Of a stretch of 22,709 nt of DNA, positions 1,617 through 22,709 are shown one piece after another. Position 1 is the first letter of the stretch, and every line of letters begins with the position of its first letter. The notes under the pieces are model-generated. The model ran no database searches and was not told the origin of the DNA. It saw only the letters and a program-made list of their open reading frames with translations. Position numbers and translations under genes: made by a program. Location: the UHGV virus genome UHGV-2199615, one strand, 5' to 3'. This stretch comes from a virus.

Positions 1617-1697
1617 GTTGGTTTTTCTCCACGGATTTACCGACAACCGAAGCCCTGACTGTTCCAGCAGTTGGGGCTTCACTGTTTTGATTTCTTT
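1617..1697 (+). ncRNA. Candidate sar-like antisense RNA complementary to the ant ribosome-binding site (about 70-80 nt)
   Basis: Plus-strand -10-like TATACT at 1605-1610 (a TTCACT -35-like hexamer lies only 14 nt upstream, so the promoter is weak evidence). Plus-strand hairpin gaagccctgactg(1649-1661)/cagttggggcttc(1668-1680), 13 bp with two G-U pairs, followed by a U-rich tract (actgttttgatttcttt). A transcript would be antisense to the ant SD and start codon. Inferred by analogy with P22 sar. Confidence 0.35.
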
Positions 1698-2115: not shown

Positions 2116-2364
2116 ATGGCAAAGGGTGTGTCAATTTCTCCAACTACGGTAAGAATCCCTGAATCTTTACGCGAGGCTCTTGCTGTCAGAGCATCAAAAA
2201 ATGGTCGCTCTGTTAACTCCGAGATCGTCATGATTTTGCAAGCCGCGATTGATGAAGATAGGTCGCCAAAGTCAGTTGAGTCATTTGCTCAGCAAGAAGC
2301 TGATAAATTCAAAGAGGCGCTACTTGAGACGCTAAAGACCATGTATGCTAAGGATGAAAAATAA
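2116..2364 (+). CDS. mnt: Mnt-like ribbon-helix-helix repressor
   Basis: ORF 2074..2364; start chosen at internal Met (MAKGVSISPTTVRIPESLREALAVRASKNGRSVNSEIVMILQAAI...TLKTMYAKDEK, 82 aa). Resembles P22 Mnt (83 aa) in the N-terminal RHH and C-terminal helix, and is divergent from arc-ant. Confidence 0.7.
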   Translation: MAKGVSISPTTVRIPESLREALAVRASKNGRSVNSEIVMILQAAIDEDRSPKSVESFAQQEADKFKEALLETLKTMYAKDEK

Positions 2365-2900
2365 TGCTGCACACAATTCATTTCTTATGCCCTGTTAACA
2401 CTGCCACTGTTGGGCAACTTCAGAACCACTGTCTCACCGCATTATCTCAAGGCGCAACTGAATTAAATATCCATATATCAAGTCAGGGAGGGGAAACTGC
2501 TGCTGGCTTTACTGCGTATAACTTTCTTAAGTCACTCCCTGTTACCGTTAGAACTCACAACATAAGCAATGTTGAATCCATAGCTAATATCGTTTTCCTG
2601 GCTGGCTCAGAACGTTTCGCAAACCCATTATCAAGATTCCTGTTACATCCTCTATTATGGTGCTTTGCCTCCCCAGCCGCCGACCATGCCAGATTGAGAG
2701 AGTACGGGAAATGCCTCGATAACGATCTTGATCGCTTCGTTGAGACGTTCAATATCGACATCGGAACCCATATTAGGTGGGCATCCCTGATAGCAGACTC
2801 GACCATTTTGGATGCTAACAAGGCTCTTGAGCATGGCATAATTAATTCCATAAAAACTGCAAGGCTGGCATCCAATCAGGCAAACTGGTGGGTTGTTTGA
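2364..2900 (+). CDS. ClpP/S14-fold (Clp-protease-like) protein of unknown role, translationally coupled to mnt
   Basis: ATG at 2364 overlaps the mnt TAA (taATG). 178 aa with HISSQGGETAAGFTAYNFL and NVESIANIVFLAGSERFANPLSRFLLHP, which align by eye with the ClpP motifs NSPGG..AG..IYD and GQAASMGAFLLTAGAKGKR...SRVMIHQP. Candidate Ser, His and Asp positions are present. Confidence 0.6.
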   Translation: MLHTIHFLCPVNTATVGQLQNHCLTALSQGATELNIHISSQGGETAAGFTAYNFLKSLPVTVRTHNISNVESIANIVFLAGSERFANPLSRFLLHPLLWCFASPAADHARLREYGKCLDNDLDRFVETFNIDIGTHIRWASLIADSTILDANKALEHGIINSIKTARLASNQANWWVV

Positions 2901-4516: not shown

Positions 4517-6532
4517 TTATTGAGCTTCTTTTTGTGATGCCTGTGCGACTCTGGTGAGCGATTGTGTGACCGTACTGATCGCTCTGTCATATGCTGTGCT
4601 ACCTTTTGGCGTATTTGCCAGACGTAACAAGGCATTTCGTATAACAGGGCTTTCGTATGCCTTCGCAGCTCCTCCTACGACACCAGCAGCAGGAACAACA
4701 AACGCAGCCGTTTTTAGCATCCCCGCTAATACTGCTGCGTTTATGATGCCACCACCAACTAACAATCCATAAAGCTGCTGACCATTTAAGTTTTGAACGT
4801 TCGCTTTTGCCGCGTGTCTTGTATCGTTGAGGTATTTAATAACGCCGTCCAGTTCCTTTCCATGTACGCCTTTAAAGAAAGTTGCTGATTGCTTCCTGTT
4901 CCGGTGTAACGCATTAATAAACTTTTCAACACTAATATTTCCAGACGGATCAGTCGCCTTATCTACAGCATTCTGAACTATGGCTGCTCGTGCGTTTTGC
5001 CTACCATTGTCATCCAGAAGCCTGTAAAGCTGAGAACGTTCTGATGGGTTTTGGCTAAAAACGAGTTTTGTTACATCCTCAGGTGTAGCCTTGCCGCTGG
5101 CTATTGCCTTTTGAACGCGCGTTCTTCTCATCATGTCATTGAATCTAGCCCATGAGCGATCAACCCTAGACATATTGGCAGCTTCTTCTGAGCCTAGTTT
5201 TTGGGATACTGCTTTTTTCATATCCGCTGTATATGCCTTGTAGACAATATCGCTGGCTTTCTGGAGCGTGTCTTTATCAACAGTCTCGTTTGAATTCATG
5301 AACCGCTTTCGAAGGTCAGTTCTGTTTTCTCTCGCCAGACGCAGGTCATTGGGTCCGCTGGTGATATCGTCTTTAAATTGCTGCAAGACTTTTACCGCGG
5401 CTCTATCCTGAGATTTGCCCGGGCGGCTTAACACGGCAATCTGATTGTCGATAGCTTTTACCGTGTTTGAGAGATCGACAGGGGTATCCCCCATAGCGTC
5501 AATTATGCGGTTATATCGCTTTCCTGCTGCCTCAATGAATTTTTGTTGCCCTTTAGTCGCAGATTCATAAAGCTGTTTATCAGAAATGCCACCCAGACCA
5601 TCGCTAAATGTTCTGACTAAATTTTCTCGTGCTTGTTGTTGATTCAGCCGATTCTTACCGGTTCCAAAAAAAGGAACTCTTTCGCCTAATGTCTGAGCCT
5701 GACTCTGCATAAAGGTTTTATCTTTCAGCGTGTCACTGGTCATTAACGGCAGGTTTCTTTCCGACGCAAAATCGACAGCAGCCTTTGCTTCCGGTGACAT
5801 CTCACCGCGAACAGCCCTGGAAACCGCACTAACTGTATTTTCCAGCCCCTTGCCAACACCACCAATGCCAGCAGAAATTACCGTTTGTGCAGGATCAATA
5901 TCTTCTCCGCCAGCAAGGCTGGTGCCACCCTGTAGTGCTAAATCTGTAGCAGCTGATTTCCCTATGGCACCAAGCACCGTTCCAGCCCTGCCCGCTGGTG
6001 TGAACGCTAACGCATTAGCAAGAAACGAAGTCAGGTCTTGCGGTGATAAACCTGGCTTGTTCAGGGCATAATCACCGGATGGCAGGGAAACGATAGTGTT
6101 ACCCTTCTCATCCTGCCTTAATTTCGCCCCCATACTCTGAAGAATCTTTTCCTGAGACGCGTCGGAGCCGAAAAGTTGAGACCATCCAGCCTTCAGGGCA
6201 TCCATGCTTAGTGAGTTCAACTCAGGGGCAGCCCCAACATTTTGCAGTCTCTCCATTTCTGGTGTCATTCGGCTTTCACCGGTAACGGCATCGCGCATTG
6301 CAGCACCTAAAACAGCCCCTTGCTCAGCAGAGCGATCTAGTCCTTCCTTCTGCTGAGTGGCAAGCTGTGCATATCCTGATGCAAGTGAGTTGTCTGCTGG
6401 CGATTGCTGAACACCTTGTTGTGTTGGCGCTGACTGACCAGCAAAATACTCATCAATGGCGGACCCAATATCTTCCGTGCTCGTACCATCAGGAAAGGTA
6501 AATGTCTTACCATTTGCAGTTACTTTCATCAT
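4517..6532 (-). CDS. Ejection (E) protein, P22 gp16-like
   Basis: 671-aa ORF, last of three consecutive ejection-protein genes (230, 483, 671 aa) matching the P22 order gp7-gp20-gp16; start overlaps the gp20-like stop (ATGA). Confidence 0.75.
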
Positions 6533-14197: not shown

Positions 14198-16396
14198 TTA
14201 CTGCTGTGGTTGTTGCTGAGTTGATTTTTGCAGGATGCTGCTGATGTCCATGCGCTGCGCATGGCCCTGTGCCTGACTTTTCAGGACAAGCTCTGCATCA
14301 GCACGGGCATTGTCTCCTTGCTGTTGCTGGAACTGTCCGAGCAGTTTCAGAGCCTCGCGGATATCAGATTTCTGCTGGCTATCGGCAGATGCGAGGATTT
14401 TCACAACATTTGCCGCTGCAACCTGAGCATCAGTCTGTGCCTGGAATGCTTTAACCTGAATGGCTGCCTGCTCGTTCTGCGCTTTCTGCAATTCAGCCTG
14501 ACCAGCAAGAAGCTGACCTTGCGCAGCAACCATAGCCGGATCTGGCTGACTGGCCTGTTGTTGTTTCGCCTGCTCAACCATCTGCTGTTCTTCTGGCGTT
14601 CTCGGCTTGATAACTCCAGACAGAAGCAACTGATTGCGGTTGTATTCTTTAAGGTCGTCCATCCCTTCGCCGTCCATATTGTCGAGGATCATCGACGATA
14701 CAAGGTCGTGTTTCGGCGTTCCGGGCGGGATAAGTGCCAGCATGGAAAGTAACGACTTAACCGTTGCGTCACGGCGAGTAGCGAACGACTGACCGACATC
14801 GACAGTCACTTCATAGTTACCCTGCGAAAGGTCGTTAAGCGCGATAACCTGCCCTGTCTGACGGTCAACCACTTCACCAGTCATCAGCGCCACGTCATCG
14901 CTGCCGTCCTCATTAACGATACGCATCGGCGTATCGCTGCCATAGACTTCACGAGCCATAGAAAGCCACACAACGCCAGCGCGACGCATGGATTTAGCCA
15001 TGTTGTCCATGTAGATATAGGACTGCGTATCCATCCGGTTAAAGATGCTATCAACGGTATCGGTAGCAACGTTGCTCGGCATGTTCTCAAGCTGCGACGC
15101 ACCTGTAATTTGCTGAATAGCCGTTCCGGTGTACTGCAATAGCCCGGCAAGAGCTGGAGGCATTTGTGTCGGAGGCGTATAACTGCTGACCTGAGCCTGC
15201 GCAGTAATATCTCCGTTTTTGTTTTTCAGACTGACCATCGGCAGGAACGCCGGGCGCTTTTTGTTGCGCTCCGCCCAATGAGTGGCGAGAGGACCAGGAA
15301 TCATGTCAACATCAACTACAGGAATGCCATCACCGCCAGCCTGAGTAGCGTTATCTGCAATCATGGAAACCATCAGGTTCTCAAGACGCTGTGCATCCAT
15401 CGCTTTTGCTGCGTGGCCTTCGATTCGTTCCTGATTATCAACAAATGAGCGACGTCCATATACCGGGATGAGAGGAATATGTTCGCCCGGAATACGCTTC
15501 GGTTCTTCCAGCCATTCAGCGCCAGACAGAAGGCCGCAATAAACGCGGCGTTTCTTCACCGTTCGCTCGCCAATCAGTTCGAATGCACCATCGGTCAGCT
15601 CGTCGACAATATCTTTGATTTGCTCTTCATCATAGATTGCCGTTTCTCCGCTAACAGGGTTGCGCCATGCCGTGAGCTTCACCTTCTCTATGCGAACTTC
15701 GTAGTAGCGCCCAACATAGATGGCATCTGGCGTTGACCAGTCATATTGAGTGCCAGTCTCATCACGAGAAAGGCCTGCCGCGATGGAATCAGGGTATTCA
15801 GCCTCGAACGCTTTAGGCGTCATGGAGAACATTTCCATAGCCCACATAGCATCAGAACGGTCATATTGCTTGCTGTCCTGATCGAAGAAGACGCATGTCG
15901 CTGGGTCGTAAACAGGAAGAAGGCTGATGCGTCGCTGCTCGTTACTTGGGTCCATTTCATCTTCGTAATCGGCACACATGCGGAAACAACCGAATCCGCC
16001 CGTTACAGCATCATCAAATGCGTTATCACACGCTTCGCCACCTGATGTTTCCTGATAGTCAGCGCGGAATTTGCCGTTCATCTTTTTGGCTAACGCTTCC
16101 GATGCCTTGTCATCCTTCGGCCTGAATTTAACGCTGATGCGATTCTGTCGATACTCGCCAATGATGCGATCACATTCACGGGCAATCTTATTCAGTTCAA
16201 AGCGCGGGTAATGCTCAAACCTGCCTTCATCAAATGAGTAACCAGCGTTTGTGCTGCCTTCCCACTGTGCGCCGGATACCCGGACGAAACGTTGAGCCTC
16301 AATAATCTGCTCACGCATATCCTGCGTTGCTGACCAGGCATTATCAAAGTTGCACAGCACCTTGCGATGCCAGTCAGTCATCTTTTTTTCTGCCAT
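14198..16396 (-). CDS. Portal protein, P22 gp1-like
   Basis: 732 aa (P22 portal is about 725 aa); C-terminal segment PEEQQMVEQAKQQQASQPDPAMVAAQGQLLAGQAELQKAQNEQ closely resembles the P22 portal C-terminal barrel region as I recall it. Confidence 0.9.
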   Translation of the reverse strand: MAEKKMTDWHRKVLCNFDNAWSATQDMREQIIEAQRFVRVSGAQWEGSTNAGYSFDEGRFEHYPRFELNKIARECDRIIGEYRQNRISVKFRPKDDKASEALAKKMNGKFRADYQETSGGEACDNAFDDAVTGGFGCFRMCADYEDEMDPSNEQRRISLLPVYDPATCVFFDQDSKQYDRSDAMWAMEMFSMTPKAFEAEYPDSIAAGLSRDETGTQYDWSTPDAIYVGRYYEVRIEKVKLTAWRNPVSGETAIYDEEQIKDIVDELTDGAFELIGERTVKKRRVYCGLLSGAEWLEEPKRIPGEHIPLIPVYGRRSFVDNQERIEGHAAKAMDAQRLENLMVSMIADNATQAGGDGIPVVDVDMIPGPLATHWAERNKKRPAFLPMVSLKNKNGDITAQAQVSSYTPPTQMPPALAGLLQYTGTAIQQITGASQLENMPSNVATDTVDSIFNRMDTQSYIYMDNMAKSMRRAGVVWLSMAREVYGSDTPMRIVNEDGSDDVALMTGEVVDRQTGQVIALNDLSQGNYEVTVDVGQSFATRRDATVKSLLSMLALIPPGTPKHDLVSSMILDNMDGEGMDDLKEYNRNQLLLSGVIKPRTPEEQQMVEQAKQQQASQPDPAMVAAQGQLLAGQAELQKAQNEQAAIQVKAFQAQTDAQVAAANVVKILASADSQQKSDIREALKLLGQFQQQQGDNARADAELVLKSQAQGHAQRMDISSILQKSTQQQPQQ

Positions 16397-19610: not shown

Positions 19611-20048
19611 TCATCGAAGGCATTGCGTCCTGATGTACTCCTGCAGGTAGTTAACCTGCGCGGTTATCCTGTCGATTCCACTTCGGAGACGGTAATAATT
19701 GAGTTCAGCATCTGCTGTAAGTCTTGGGTTTTCTCCATCGCCCATGCTGCTGGCTCCGGTCGTTGACTTTGCACAGGTGGCGGCGACTTGCAGGCGCTTA
19801 CGCCCAGCAGAAACATCAGCACGGAGACTTTCGATAGTCGCGTTAGCATCAGCAAGCTCCTTTGTGTATCTTGCGTCGAGTTCTGCTACATCACGTTGAC
19901 GCTTCCGCATATCAGCGATGATGGATGTGGCTTTATCGCGCTGCTCTTTGTAGGCGATTGCATTATCACGGTAATGATTAACAGCCCATGACAGGCAGAC
20001 GATGATGCAAATAATCAGAGCGGAGATAATCGCGGTGACTCTGCTCAT
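19611..20048 (-). CDS. Rz: Rz i-spanin (lambda Rz-like)
   Basis: 145 aa; N-terminal TM segment ([20 protein letters not shown]) then a charged coiled-coil region; start overlaps the R stop; lambda gene order S-R-Rz. Confidence 0.85.
19664..19855 (-). CDS. Rz1: Rz1 o-spanin lipoprotein, embedded in the +1 frame of Rz
   Basis: 63-aa ORF entirely inside Rz; lipobox-like LLGVSAC followed by a proline-rich stretch ([13 protein letters not shown]), as in lambda Rz1. Confidence 0.7.
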
Positions 20049-20521
20049 ACCTCAATCTCTCTGACCGTTCCGCCAGCCTCTTTGAATTTTGCAATCAGGT
20101 TGTCAGCCTTATGCTCGAACTGACCATAACCAGCGCCCGGCAGTGAAGCCCAGATATTGCTGCAACGGTCGATTGCCTGACGAATATCACCGCGGTCAAT
20201 CATCGGTAAAGCGCCACGCTCTTTAATCTGCTGCAATGCCACAGCGTCCTGACTTTTCGGAGAGAAGTCTTTCAGACCAAGCTGCTTACGGTAGGCATCC
20301 CACCAACGGGAAAGAAGCTGGTAGCGTCCGGCGGCTGTTGATTTGAGTTTTGGGTTTAGCGTGACAAGCTTGCGAGGGTGATCGGAGTAATCAGTAAATA
20401 GCTCTCCGCCTACAATGACGTCATAACCATGATTTCTGGTTTTCTGCCGTCCGTTATCAGTTCCCTCTGACCACGCCAGCATATCGAGGAACGCCTTACG
20501 TTGATTATTGATTTCCACCAT
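20045..20521 (-). CDS. R: Endolysin R (lambda-type lytic transglycosylase)
   Basis: 158 aa, [51 protein letters not shown]...; matches lambda R almost residue for residue as I recall it. Confidence 0.9.
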
Positions 20522-20828
20522 CTTCTACTCCGGCTTTTTTAGCAGCGAAGCGTTTGATAAGCGAACCAATCGAGTCAGTACCGATGTAGCCGATGAACAC
20601 GCTCGTTATATAAGCGAGATTGCTACTTAGTCCGGCGAAGTCGAGAAGGTCACGAATGAACCAGGCGATAATGGCGCACATCGTTGCGTCGATTACTGTT
20701 TTTGTAAACGCACCGCCATTATATCTGCCGCGAAGGTACGCCATTGCAAACGCAAGGATTGCCCCGATGCCTTGTTCCTTTGCCGCGAGAATGGCGGCTA
20801 ACAGGTCATGTTTTTCTGGCATCTTCAT
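20505..20828 (-). CDS. S: Holin S (lambda class I holin with dual-start MKM antiholin/holin motif)
   Basis: 107 aa, [39 protein letters not shown]...; essentially the lambda S107 sequence as I recall it. Confidence 0.9.
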
Positions 20829-21424
20829 GTCTTACCCCCAATAAGGGGATTTGCTCTATTTAATTAGGAATAAGGTCGATTACTGATAGAACAAATCCAG
20901 GCTACTGTGTTTAGTAATCAGATTTGTTCGTGACCGATATGCACGGGCAAAACGGCATGAGGTTGTTAGCGCAACCTCATGCCACCCGCTTTCACGAAGG
21001 TCATGTGTAGAAGGCCGCAGCATAACTATCACTGATGAATTCAGGATAGCCAGTGGCTACGGCTCAGGTTGGGTTGTGGCGGTCGGTGCTGAACTCCGAC
21101 TTAATGACGATAGGCGTGTACCGACGCCTCGTTTTACTTCCTCCGCTTTCACGGCTTCACCCTAGACCAGCTTTACGAAATCCTCGTAAACCTAACCGCG
21201 GCAGATATGACCGGCACGGTGTGCCATATCACGGACCGGCGGGTGTCTCGTTCACCTGATTAACGCATCAGCCTGCGTATTCACCACAACGATAAGAGTA
21301 CTGCGCGGCACCTTTCACCAATTCCGCGAGGTCTGCGGGTTCAATGCTCTTACCTGTTGTGCAAACAAAAAAGCCACCGTTGCAACTTAAGAGTCACTAA
21401 CGGCAGCTTACCTTCTAATTATGG
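20829..21424 (-). promoter_or_regulatory. Late-operon leader (expected to hold the late promoter PR', qut site and leader terminator)
   Basis: About 600-bp non-coding gap between the Q-like antiterminator and holin S, as in lambdoid phages; exact -35/-10 elements could not be assigned by eye. Confidence 0.35.
20954..20983 (-). terminator. Strong stem-loop in the Q-S intergenic region, possible terminator/attenuator of the late leader
   Basis: Perfect 12-bp stem ggcatgaggttg/caacctcatgcc with a 6-nt loop; on the minus strand it is followed by GUUUUGCCCG. Confidence 0.4.
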
Positions 21425-21943
21425 CTAAATGGATAATTGCATGTCAAGGTTTTTAACAGCAACATGCTTAACTTTCTCAACACGTTTACGCATTTTGAAA
21501 GCATTTTGCATTGGCTGGTATAAAACAAATAATGACGCTTTCAGGATGTCGTCAATTTCGTTTCTACAGGTTGCCAGTGAAGGTTTTCTCCATCCCTCGC
21601 CACCACGTCCACACATCTTGCGTGGCTTTGCAGTCGCGTGATAGTAGGATGCAATTGCTCGCTTAGATGAACCATGAGCGTAGTAGCTGAGGAGGATGCC
21701 AAAGGCTTTCTTGTCAATGTACATGACGGAATCAACGACCTGAGAAATCAACATTCCATCATCATCATTACACATTGGCCTTGTCATAATTCTTCCCGGC
21801 TCTACGCTCTCCATGAACTTCGCTATTACGCTGCTCATGCGCTTTTCCAGACGACCTGAATAAACCCATGCGCCCCACAGTTCAAGCCAGCCATTCAGCC
21901 ACTCGTGCTGCTCTTTGGTGAGGTTTAGTTCTCTTATGCTCAT
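21425..21943 (-). CDS. Late-gene antiterminator Q (P22 gp23-type)
   Basis: 172 aa immediately upstream of the late leader and lysis genes; WLELWGAWVYSG and RPMCNDDDGMLIS resemble P22 gp23 motifs (LERWGAW, CCDDDAM) as I recall them. Confidence 0.65.
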   Translation of the reverse strand: MSIRELNLTKEQHEWLNGWLELWGAWVYSGRLEKRMSSVIAKFMESVEPGRIMTRPMCNDDDGMLISQVVDSVMYIDKKAFGILLSYYAHGSSKRAIASYYHATAKPRKMCGRGGEGWRKPSLATCRNEIDDILKASLFVLYQPMQNAFKMRKRVEKVKHVAVKNLDMQLSI

Positions 21944-22128
21944 CGTCTTCCCCTCTTGCCTTGTTTGACCATCAGGACGCCGTTAACTATTACGTGACGC
22001 TCGCCTTTGCTGTCTCGGTTGTACTTGAGCACTGTTCCTCTTGCGCAGGAAAGCATCCTCGCCACTTCGGTCTGATTGCCTCGTGTCTGGATAAGAAGCT
22101 CTGGTATCGTTTGAATTGTGGCGTTCAT
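21940..22128 (-). CDS. ninH: NinH-like protein
   Basis: 62 aa; IPELLIQTRGNQTEVARMLSCARGTVLKYNRDSKGERHVIVNGVLMV resembles lambda NinH (..GNQTEVARRLKCSRGTVRKY..) as I recall it; start overlaps the rusA stop. Confidence 0.7.
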   Translation of the reverse strand: MNATIQTIPELLIQTRGNQTEVARMLSCARGTVLKYNRDSKGERHVIVNGVLMVKQGKRGRR

Positions 22129-22328
22129 GCGTTCTCCAGTTCGGTGATTTTTATTCCAAGCCTTCCGCCTGGTACTTTCACACCACGAATTACGCGAATG
22201 TCATCGAATTGCTCGTCGTCTTCCGCAAATCCGGCGTGGATAAGGGAGTCGAGTAAACCTTTCAGGATGTTGTCGAGGTCGCGGCGGCGGGAGTCTGGAA
22301 CGTCTGCGATGACTTTGATACGGAGTCG
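22125..22328 (-). pseudogene. rusA: rusA-like Holliday-junction resolvase, 3' fragment; 5' part displaced by an IS insertion
   Basis: Residues RRDLDNILKGLLDSLIHAGFAEDDEQFDDIRVIRG resemble the RusA C-terminus. The first 31 codons of the 98-aa ORF 22125..22421 are encoded by IS-end sequence, so the native gene is interrupted at about 22328/22329. Confidence 0.65.
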
Positions 22329-22709
22329 TGAACCGCCCCGGGAATCCTGGAGACTAAACTTCCTGAGAAAGAGGTAAACAGGATGACTAAAAATACTCGT
22401 TTTTCCCCCGAAGTCCGTCAACGGGCAGTCCGTATGGTTCTGGAAAGTCAGAGCGAATATGACTCACAATGGGCGACAATTTGTTCCATTGCTCCAAAGA
22501 TTGGCTGTACGCCGGAGACTCTGCGTGTCTGGGTTCGCCAGCATGAGCGGGATACCGGGGGCGGTGATGGAGGGCTCACCACCGCTGAACGTCAGCGTCT
22601 GAAAGAGCTGGAACGTGAAAATCGTGAACTGCGCCGCAGTAACGATATCCTTCGCCAGGCTTCCGCTTATTTTGCGAAGGCGGAGTTCGACCGCCTCTGG
22701 AAAAAATAA
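22329..22709 (+). mobile_element. IS3-family insertion sequence, IS629/IS1203-like, left end and orfA (continues beyond window)
   Basis: Terminal sequence TGAACCGCCCCGGGAATCCTGGAGACTAAAC starts at 22329 and is followed by orfA; matches the IS629 left end as I recall it. Confidence 0.8.
22383..22709 (+). CDS. IS3-family transposase OrfA (IS629-like, 108 aa)
   Basis: [57 protein letters not shown]...: HTH N-terminus and leucine-zipper-like C-terminus typical of IS3 OrfA; stop at the window end. OrfB (-1 frameshift) would lie beyond the window. Confidence 0.85.

Follow-up and report, generated by a model that had tools for sequence, protein, structure and literature searches.

CUS-3 of the K1 strain RS218 (CP000711), a P22-like K1-specific prophage belonging to Lederbergvirus, encodes N and carries its genes in the order cro-cII-O-P-nin...-roi-hkbD-rus-ninH-Q, with only ninH located between rus and Q. 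In other lambdoid phages (phage 82 and, in K-12, DLP12) rusA occupies the same place between nin genes and ninH-Q. The catalytic residues of RusA are Asp70, Asp72 and Asp91, and Bolt, Sharples and Lloyd are said to have found in 1999 that all three are essential. The silent rusA gene of K-12 can be switched on by IS2 or IS10 located upstream of it, and the resulting alleles rus-1 and rus-2 are suppressors of ruv. Regarding the insertion sequences themselves, copies that share at least 95% nucleotide identity are considered isoforms according to the convention of ISfinder. Sub-types of IS629 differ by 4–5% and IS1203 and IS3411 have been called isoforms of IS629 (PMC3271280).

The stretch of DNA analysed here, called the window in what follows, comprises 22,709 nucleotides of the UHGV virus genome UHGV-2199615. 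From position 11 to position 22328 it is 99.9–100% identical to a prophage present in 36 complete genomes, and the genomes with a matching prophage include UTI89, S88, APEC O1, ATCC 11775, FY26 and NCTC11151. Those of FY26 and NCTC11151 agree with the window at 100% identity throughout its 22.3 kb, and IHE3034 matches the segment comprising Q, ninH and rusA at 99.9%. Compared with CUS-3, the window displays 99.5% identity over 70% of its length. A gene for sar RNA is located beside the genes for Ant and Arc, which confirms an immI region of the P22 type; in P22 this antisense RNA regulates ant. The FY26 prophage adjoins intS, an acyltransferase gene and an endosialidase tailspike gene, a setting that corresponds to the CUS-3/neuO arrangement (PMC3046976). 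Judged from these matches, the prophage background is of the K1 ExPEC/APEC type and not EHEC. The features on which the analysis relies are listed in Table 1.

Table 1. Positions of features in the window and the basis of their assignment.
Feature	Position	Strand	Basis
sar RNA (RF00262), P22 immI antisense RNA	1617-1683	+	Rfam, 83.9 bits
Lysis genes Rz, R and S	19611-20828	-	Lambdoid late-control block
PR'-like late promoter (candidate) at the 3' end of Q, TTGACA-18-CATAAT	21418-21447	-	Consensus scan, 11/12; consensus match alone
Q, late-gene antiterminator	21425-21943	-	Pfam Phage_antitermQ, 89.8 bits; Q in the CUS-3 annotation
ninH, start overlapping the rusA stop	21940-22128	-	Pfam Phage_NinH, 85.7 bits
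rusA 3' remnant, codons 54-120 and stop, 204 nt	22125-22328	-	Translation, Pfam RusA, identity to intact rusA
Predicted 3-bp target-site duplication (TSD), TCG	22326-22328	.	Inferred from TSDs of near-identical copies
IS629 isoform, IS3 family, left 381 nt, ending with the window	22329-22709	+	Nucleotide identity
Left terminal inverted repeat (IRL), TGAACCGCCCCGGGAATCCTGGAGA	22329-22353	+	Comparison with the FY26 right end
orfA, 108 aa, helix-turn-helix	22383-22709	+	Pfam HTH_Tnp_1, 49 bits (cut-off 24.1)

The comparison with related prophages, which had been proposed in the first-pass annotation, revealed that their rusA is uninterrupted and intact with a length of 363 nt (in ST95-32 at positions 4726-5088 of locus L001). 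The segment 21400-22328 (929 nt) is shared at 99.9–100% identity, together with an intact rusA, by ST95-32, FY26, UTI89 and many more genomes, and the rusA remnant of the window matches the last 204 nt of the intact gene from ST95-32, FY26 and others at 100% identity. Its translation, RLRIKVIADVPDSRRRDLDN...ELENA*, matches the Pfam family RusA (PF05866) with 35.6 bits (cut-off 22.8) at profile positions 70-123 of 124. Residues 1-53 and an own start codon are missing, so that instead of a complete RusA of about 120 amino acids with its own start only the part from residue 54 onwards is left. Asp70, Asp72 and Asp91 are kept within the motifs RRRDLDN and EDDEQ, the numbering being based on a gap-free alignment of the intact 120-aa allele with K-12 RusA (1Q8R, E = 2.8e-26). 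The only start codon in frame with the remnant is a TTG inside the IS, from which a 98-aa open reading frame (22125-22421) extends. This open reading frame is a mechanical hybrid of IS and rusA, for which no match was found in the public sequence records searched. A functional RusA would not be expected from the remnant.

At the junction, the uninterrupted gene of ST95-32 reads ...GATACGGAGTCG TGATTTGGTG... whereas the window reads ...GATACGGAGTCG TGAACCGCCCC... The breakpoint is ambiguous by 3 nt, as the trinucleotide TGA is common to the target (after ...GAGTCG) and to the IS terminus, and BLAST homology to the uninterrupted rusA reaches 22331 because the target too reads TGA there. The terminus TGAACC fixes the start of the IS at 22329.

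From this position the sequence reads TGAACCGCCCCGGG, or, over a longer distance, TGAACCGCCCCGGGAATCC..., and the window holds 381 of about 1310 nt, that is the left 29% of the element. At 23 of its first 25 positions the left terminal repeat is the reverse complement of the right end of a full-length copy from FY26; it starts with 5'-TG and is identical to the repeats of many annotated IS3/IS629 copies. Positions 22329-22707 are identical (379/379) to IS3-family/IS629 copies from numerous E. coli records. Matches with E = 0 came from 6125 records, and some of the matching copies carry the PGAP name 'IS3-like element IS629 family transposase'. When compared with the two 1310-bp copies in the FY26 prophage, 380 of 381 positions (99.7%) agree, the sole difference being an A instead of a G at 22708. 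The IS629 annotated on plasmid pO157 of Sakai agrees with the window at 365 of 381 positions (95.8%, 16 mismatches), and the full-length FY26 copy, used as a proxy, agrees with it at 1259 of 1310 positions (96.1%, 51 mismatches). With a threshold of at least 95% nucleotide identity the element is therefore an isoform of IS629, a borderline assignment that is based on 29% of its length in the window. It does not belong to the IS629 sub-type of O157, from which it differs by the 16 mismatches in 381 nt and by its orfA stop codon (TAA versus TGA). These results bear out three statements of the first-pass annotation: that an IS3-family left end begins at 22329 within rusA, which both the reading of the sequence and the alignment with an uninterrupted relative confirm; that a C-terminal remnant of rusA adjoins ninH and Q, as seen from the Pfam match and the 100% nucleotide matches; and that the element is IS629-like, a fair name at 95.8% identity to the Sakai copy when sub-types are known to differ by 4–5%.

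It had also been suggested that the presence of IS629 hints at an enterohaemorrhagic host. However, the copy in the window deviates by about 4% from IS629 of O157 and matches the APEC FY26 copies except for one base, and IS629-like sequence was detected in 3747 of 5426 complete E. coli genomes. As the prophage is of the K1 ExPEC/APEC type and IS629-like sequence is without diagnostic value, the inference of an EHEC host is rejected. The practical correction is that the presence of the IS is no sign of such a host.

The end of orfA contains a run of six A (22700-22705) within the frameshift motif GGAAAAAAT (22698-22706), located where PGAP annotates the programmed frameshift that joins orfA to orfB in full-length copies. 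PGAP also marks an AL1L pseudoknot at the frameshift site of near-identical copies, whereas no AL1L pseudoknot from Rfam was detected in the window, where the element is cut by the window end. The full-length FY26 copies possess orfA, a frameshifted orfB and imperfect terminal repeats, and the DDE/rve transposase domain of orfB is present in the 1310-bp FY26 copy that is identical at 380 of 381 positions over the shared part. The stop codon of orfA is TAA (22707-22709) in the window and TGA in the copies from FY26, ETEC4085 and O157. The TAA variant was encountered in 51 other family copies (from E. coli, Shigella and other records), and in 49 of these TGCC... follows as it does in FY26. The idea that TAA marks a truncation or a new junction was rejected, since the 49 copies run on normally, and the variant is hence a natural SNP. 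It would turn the first codon in the orfB frame after the frameshift from ATG to ATA.

Near-identical copies are flanked by 3-bp TSDs, namely AAC and GGC in FY26 and TTC in ETEC4085. Among 27 full-length family copies, which had been fetched for other reasons and are enriched for IS-rich Shigella-like genomes, a 3-bp TSD was detected in 17, a 3- or 4-bp TSD in 18 and none in the remaining 9. In all, 31 copies had flanks long enough for the right end to be sought, and in the four that are additional to the 27 it was missing at about 1310 bp, as in the pO157 copy at 14207. The 9 copies without a TSD and the 4 without a right end make it evident that rearranged or truncated copies are not rare.

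A simple insertion of a complete IS629 isoform into rusA of a CUS-3-like, P22-type prophage of the K1 ExPEC/APEC type is the reading that we consider probable. It is supported by the two copies in the FY26 prophage, both of which are full-length (1310 bp) and possess 3-bp TSDs, and by the genomes of FY26 and NCTC11151, which hold about 17–18 copies of the IS while their prophages are identical to the window over 22.3 kb. Further support comes from ETEC4085, where the nin region of a related prophage contains a full-length family copy with the TSD TTC that is oriented like the IS of the window, from the 18 of 27 surveyed copies that keep a 3- or 4-bp TSD, and from the TAA variant, which runs into orfB in 49 of 51 other copies. 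The copy number of the IS in the relatives is consistent with ongoing transposition in the lineage.

According to this proposal, the IS629 isoform would have transposed into codon 53/54 of rusA, within the PR (nin) operon. The element would be a complete IS3-family member of about 1310 bp that makes its OrfAB transposase by a -1 frameshift, moves by a copy-out/paste-in mechanism and duplicates 3 bp of its target. Beyond 22709 the IS would run on as TGCCACTGCTGGATAAG... (TGCCACTGCTGG...) through orfB to ...CCCGGGGCGGTTCA at about 1310 bp. On its far side the trinucleotide TCG would be expected again, followed by the 5' 159 nt of rusA (TCG+TGATTTGGTGAAAATG...; TCG TGATTTGGTGAAAATGTC). An N-terminal RusA fragment (residues 1-54) would end with ...FTKSR and be stopped by the TGA of the IS terminus, and the Holliday-junction resolvase RusA is thus predicted to be inactivated. 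The transposase gene reads away from ninH and Q and against transcription from PR.

The other end of the window also carries an IS. Positions 1-11, GGGCAAATCCA, are exactly the last 11 bases of IS2, which in the K-12 copy IS2A follow right after the insD stop codon, and homology to the tailspike (endosialidase) gene of the relatives starts at base 11. From the IS2 end and the start of tailspike homology at base 11 it follows that IS2 interrupts the tailspike gene after roughly codon 200. A synthetic query representing this IS2-tailspike junction was found in no complete E. coli genome. The prophage therefore carries at least two IS insertions, of IS2 and of the IS629 type, and from the interrupted tailspike gene it is probably non-infective anyway. 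The window begins just past the insD stop codon of IS2 and ends exactly at the orfA stop codon of the IS629-type element, which suggests that a longer record was cut at gene boundaries to yield it, as happens when proviruses are called. With such cutting at gene boundaries, the 381-nt IS stub is evidence neither for a truncated nor for a complete element. This orfA stop codon is also where the IMG/VR locus L031 ends.

A complete IS could alternatively mark a rearrangement, that is recombination between IS copies or an adjacent deletion or inversion, which has parted the 3' remnant of rusA from the 5' half of the gene. In that case the DNA beyond the IS would be unrelated, and some of the nin/early region may be missing or located elsewhere. 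The prophage segment is flanked on both sides by IS elements, about 17–20 IS copies per related genome represent ample substrates for recombination, and a third of the surveyed full-length copies (9/27) lack a matching TSD, although IS-rich Shigella-like genomes are over-represented in this sample. In FY26, the closest relative, however, both prophage copies are simple insertions with TSDs, and the window is colinear with its relatives over 11-22328. A rearrangement is therefore regarded as unlikely, if still of some weight.

Another possibility is that the IS segment is a truncated remnant, consisting of orfA only or interrupted by another element, and thus an old and dead scar. The window does stop at the orfA stop codon and 4 of 31 surveyed copies have no right end near 1310 bp, but the start of the window also coincides with a gene boundary, the insD stop of IS2, so that cutting at gene edges explains the end. 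In addition, the 379/379 identity to active-looking multi-copy elements points to a recent event and 49 of the 51 other TAA copies are followed by normal orfB sequence, which makes a remnant very unlikely. An assembly artefact, in which a misjoin through a repeat has set an IS end beside a rusA that is really intact, is the least credible explanation and a highly improbable one: each end of the window falls within a multi-copy IS element, where short-read assembly commonly runs into difficulty, and the junction was found in no other public sequence searched, but the break is located exactly at the first base of the terminal repeat (TGAACC...), as in real transposition and where a misjoin would rarely fall, and the IS2 terminus at the other end is likewise exact.

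By megablast, the IS-rusA junction was present in 0 of 5426 complete E. coli genomes and absent from phage records, and no match to a degenerate pattern for the two predicted junctions was detected in viral contigs, species-representative genome contigs or JGI metagenome contigs. The predicted 54-aa N-terminal RusA fragment ending in …FTKSR does occur in public data. As a candidate for the IS junction it was rejected, since the sequences in question are intact rusA genes cut at contig ends. Of these contigs, 8 of 10 read ...TCACGAC at their end (…TCAAGAC in L013) and 2 of 10 stop at ...TCACGA. The extra C corresponds to uninterrupted rusA (CGA CTC) and not to the IS (CGA TGA), and this lead was therefore dropped. 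The ten contigs (L008-L017), out of 15 reported, end at nt 162 or 163 of rusA, and they originate from different assemblers (megahit k141 and k119, SPAdes, Logan, NCBI). Their ends probably reflect a common polymorphic or mosaic boundary at nt 164 among co-resident lambdoid prophages, which is located one codon away from the IS insertion point by coincidence.

From the gene order of CUS-3 it follows that the IS interrupts the PR operon two genes upstream of Q. Its position had been described as the upstream edge of the nin/Q region; this holds within the window, where rusA is the upstream-most gene of the region, but not for the operon as a whole, of which rus is the second-to-last nin gene in CUS-3. 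Upstream of their ATG codons, ninH and Q have Shine-Dalgarno-like sequences of their own (GGAG and GAGGGG, respectively). In a crude consensus scan of the 381 nt of IS in the window and of the complete copy from FY26, no sigma-70-like site facing Q was detected, and terminator-like sites in both sequences occurred at the level of shuffled sequences. The PR'-like site, a near-consensus sigma-70 site, is located where the late promoter PR' would be expected, and downstream of it there are about 600 nt without a long open reading frame or tRNA, up to the holin gene.

Adhya, Gottesman and de Crombrugghe reportedly showed in 1974 that RNA polymerase modified by N overcomes the polarity of IS insertions. 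Lambda can do without the nin region, as known from the nin5 deletion, and RusA is non-essential. On induction, N-antiterminated transcription from PR would probably still cross the IS to reach ninH and Q. On the basis of N-type read-through and of the dispensability of nin, both taken from lambda biology, the effect of the insertion on Q and on the activation of late genes is expected to be modest at most. A stronger proposal would be that the insertion in rusA exerts enough polarity to disconnect Q and the late genes from PR and that, together with IS2 in the tailspike gene, it belongs to a series of selected steps by which a neuO-carrying CUS-3-type prophage becomes immobilised in K1 E. coli; we judge this to have a slim chance of being correct. 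If it were true, IS expansion would be the means of fixing a virulence-modifying prophage in the chromosome, and an insertion that blocks Q would illustrate prophage domestication.

Related prophages contain comparable insertions. ETEC4085 (H16) and OkiPb01684 (H17) were considered as carrying the same event as the window and rejected, as their IS is located in roi/KilAC, about 480 bp further upstream, and their rusA is intact. The ETEC4085 copy of the IS629 family (L002 3868-5177, 1310 bp, TSD TTC) interrupts the roi/KilAC gene and has the same orientation to Q as the IS of the window, and the copy of OkiPb01684 is known from a similar two-piece match alone. A Clp-protease-like gene is intact in the window (2364-2900, plus strand). 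In FY26 this gene is split by the same IS (L003 8382-9691, TSD GGC), and a second copy splits the tailspike gene (TSD AAC). NCTC11151 displays the same extra segment of about 1.3 kb within its match as FY26. The insertions of the FY26 type in the Clp-protease-like and tailspike genes are independent IS hits within one prophage lineage. In the prophages of ATCC 11775 and MS7163, ISEc12 is present instead.

Taken together, the observation is real but ordinary, a strain-specific gene knockout by a common IS of E. coli, and the event is one of routine IS-mediated prophage decay. Both partners are sequences already known, and IS629-type insertions in prophages are well documented as strain-specific markers (PMC3271280). 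Beyond strain typing the value of the finding is small. The insertion site could act as a lineage marker, since it is absent from the 5426 complete E. coli genomes and from the other collections searched, and the case adds one further example of IS-driven decay among CUS-3-type prophages.

With regard to the described systems, the window is closest to CUS-3, with which it shares 99.8% identity across Q-ninH-rus and the gene order roi-hkbD-rus-ninH-Q-S-R-Rz. Relative to CUS-3, a mosaic portion makes up about 30% of the window, but this portion is 100% identical to the FY26-type prophages. Both rus and the tailspike gene are intact in CUS-3, whereas in the window rus contains an IS629-type element and the tailspike gene an IS2 end. 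The element itself resembles IS629, IS1203 and IS3411 of the IS3 family, whose terminal repeats begin in the same way, with TGAACCGCCCCGG. In K-12 rus-1 and rus-2 the IS is located upstream of rusA and activates it, in contrast to the window, where the IS lies inside the rusA coding sequence and is destructive. The IS629 insertions in the Sp and SpLE elements of O157 are likewise strain-specific, concentrated in prophages and useful as lineage markers (PMC3271280), whereas their host background and IS sub-type are unlike those of the ExPEC/APEC-type case described here.
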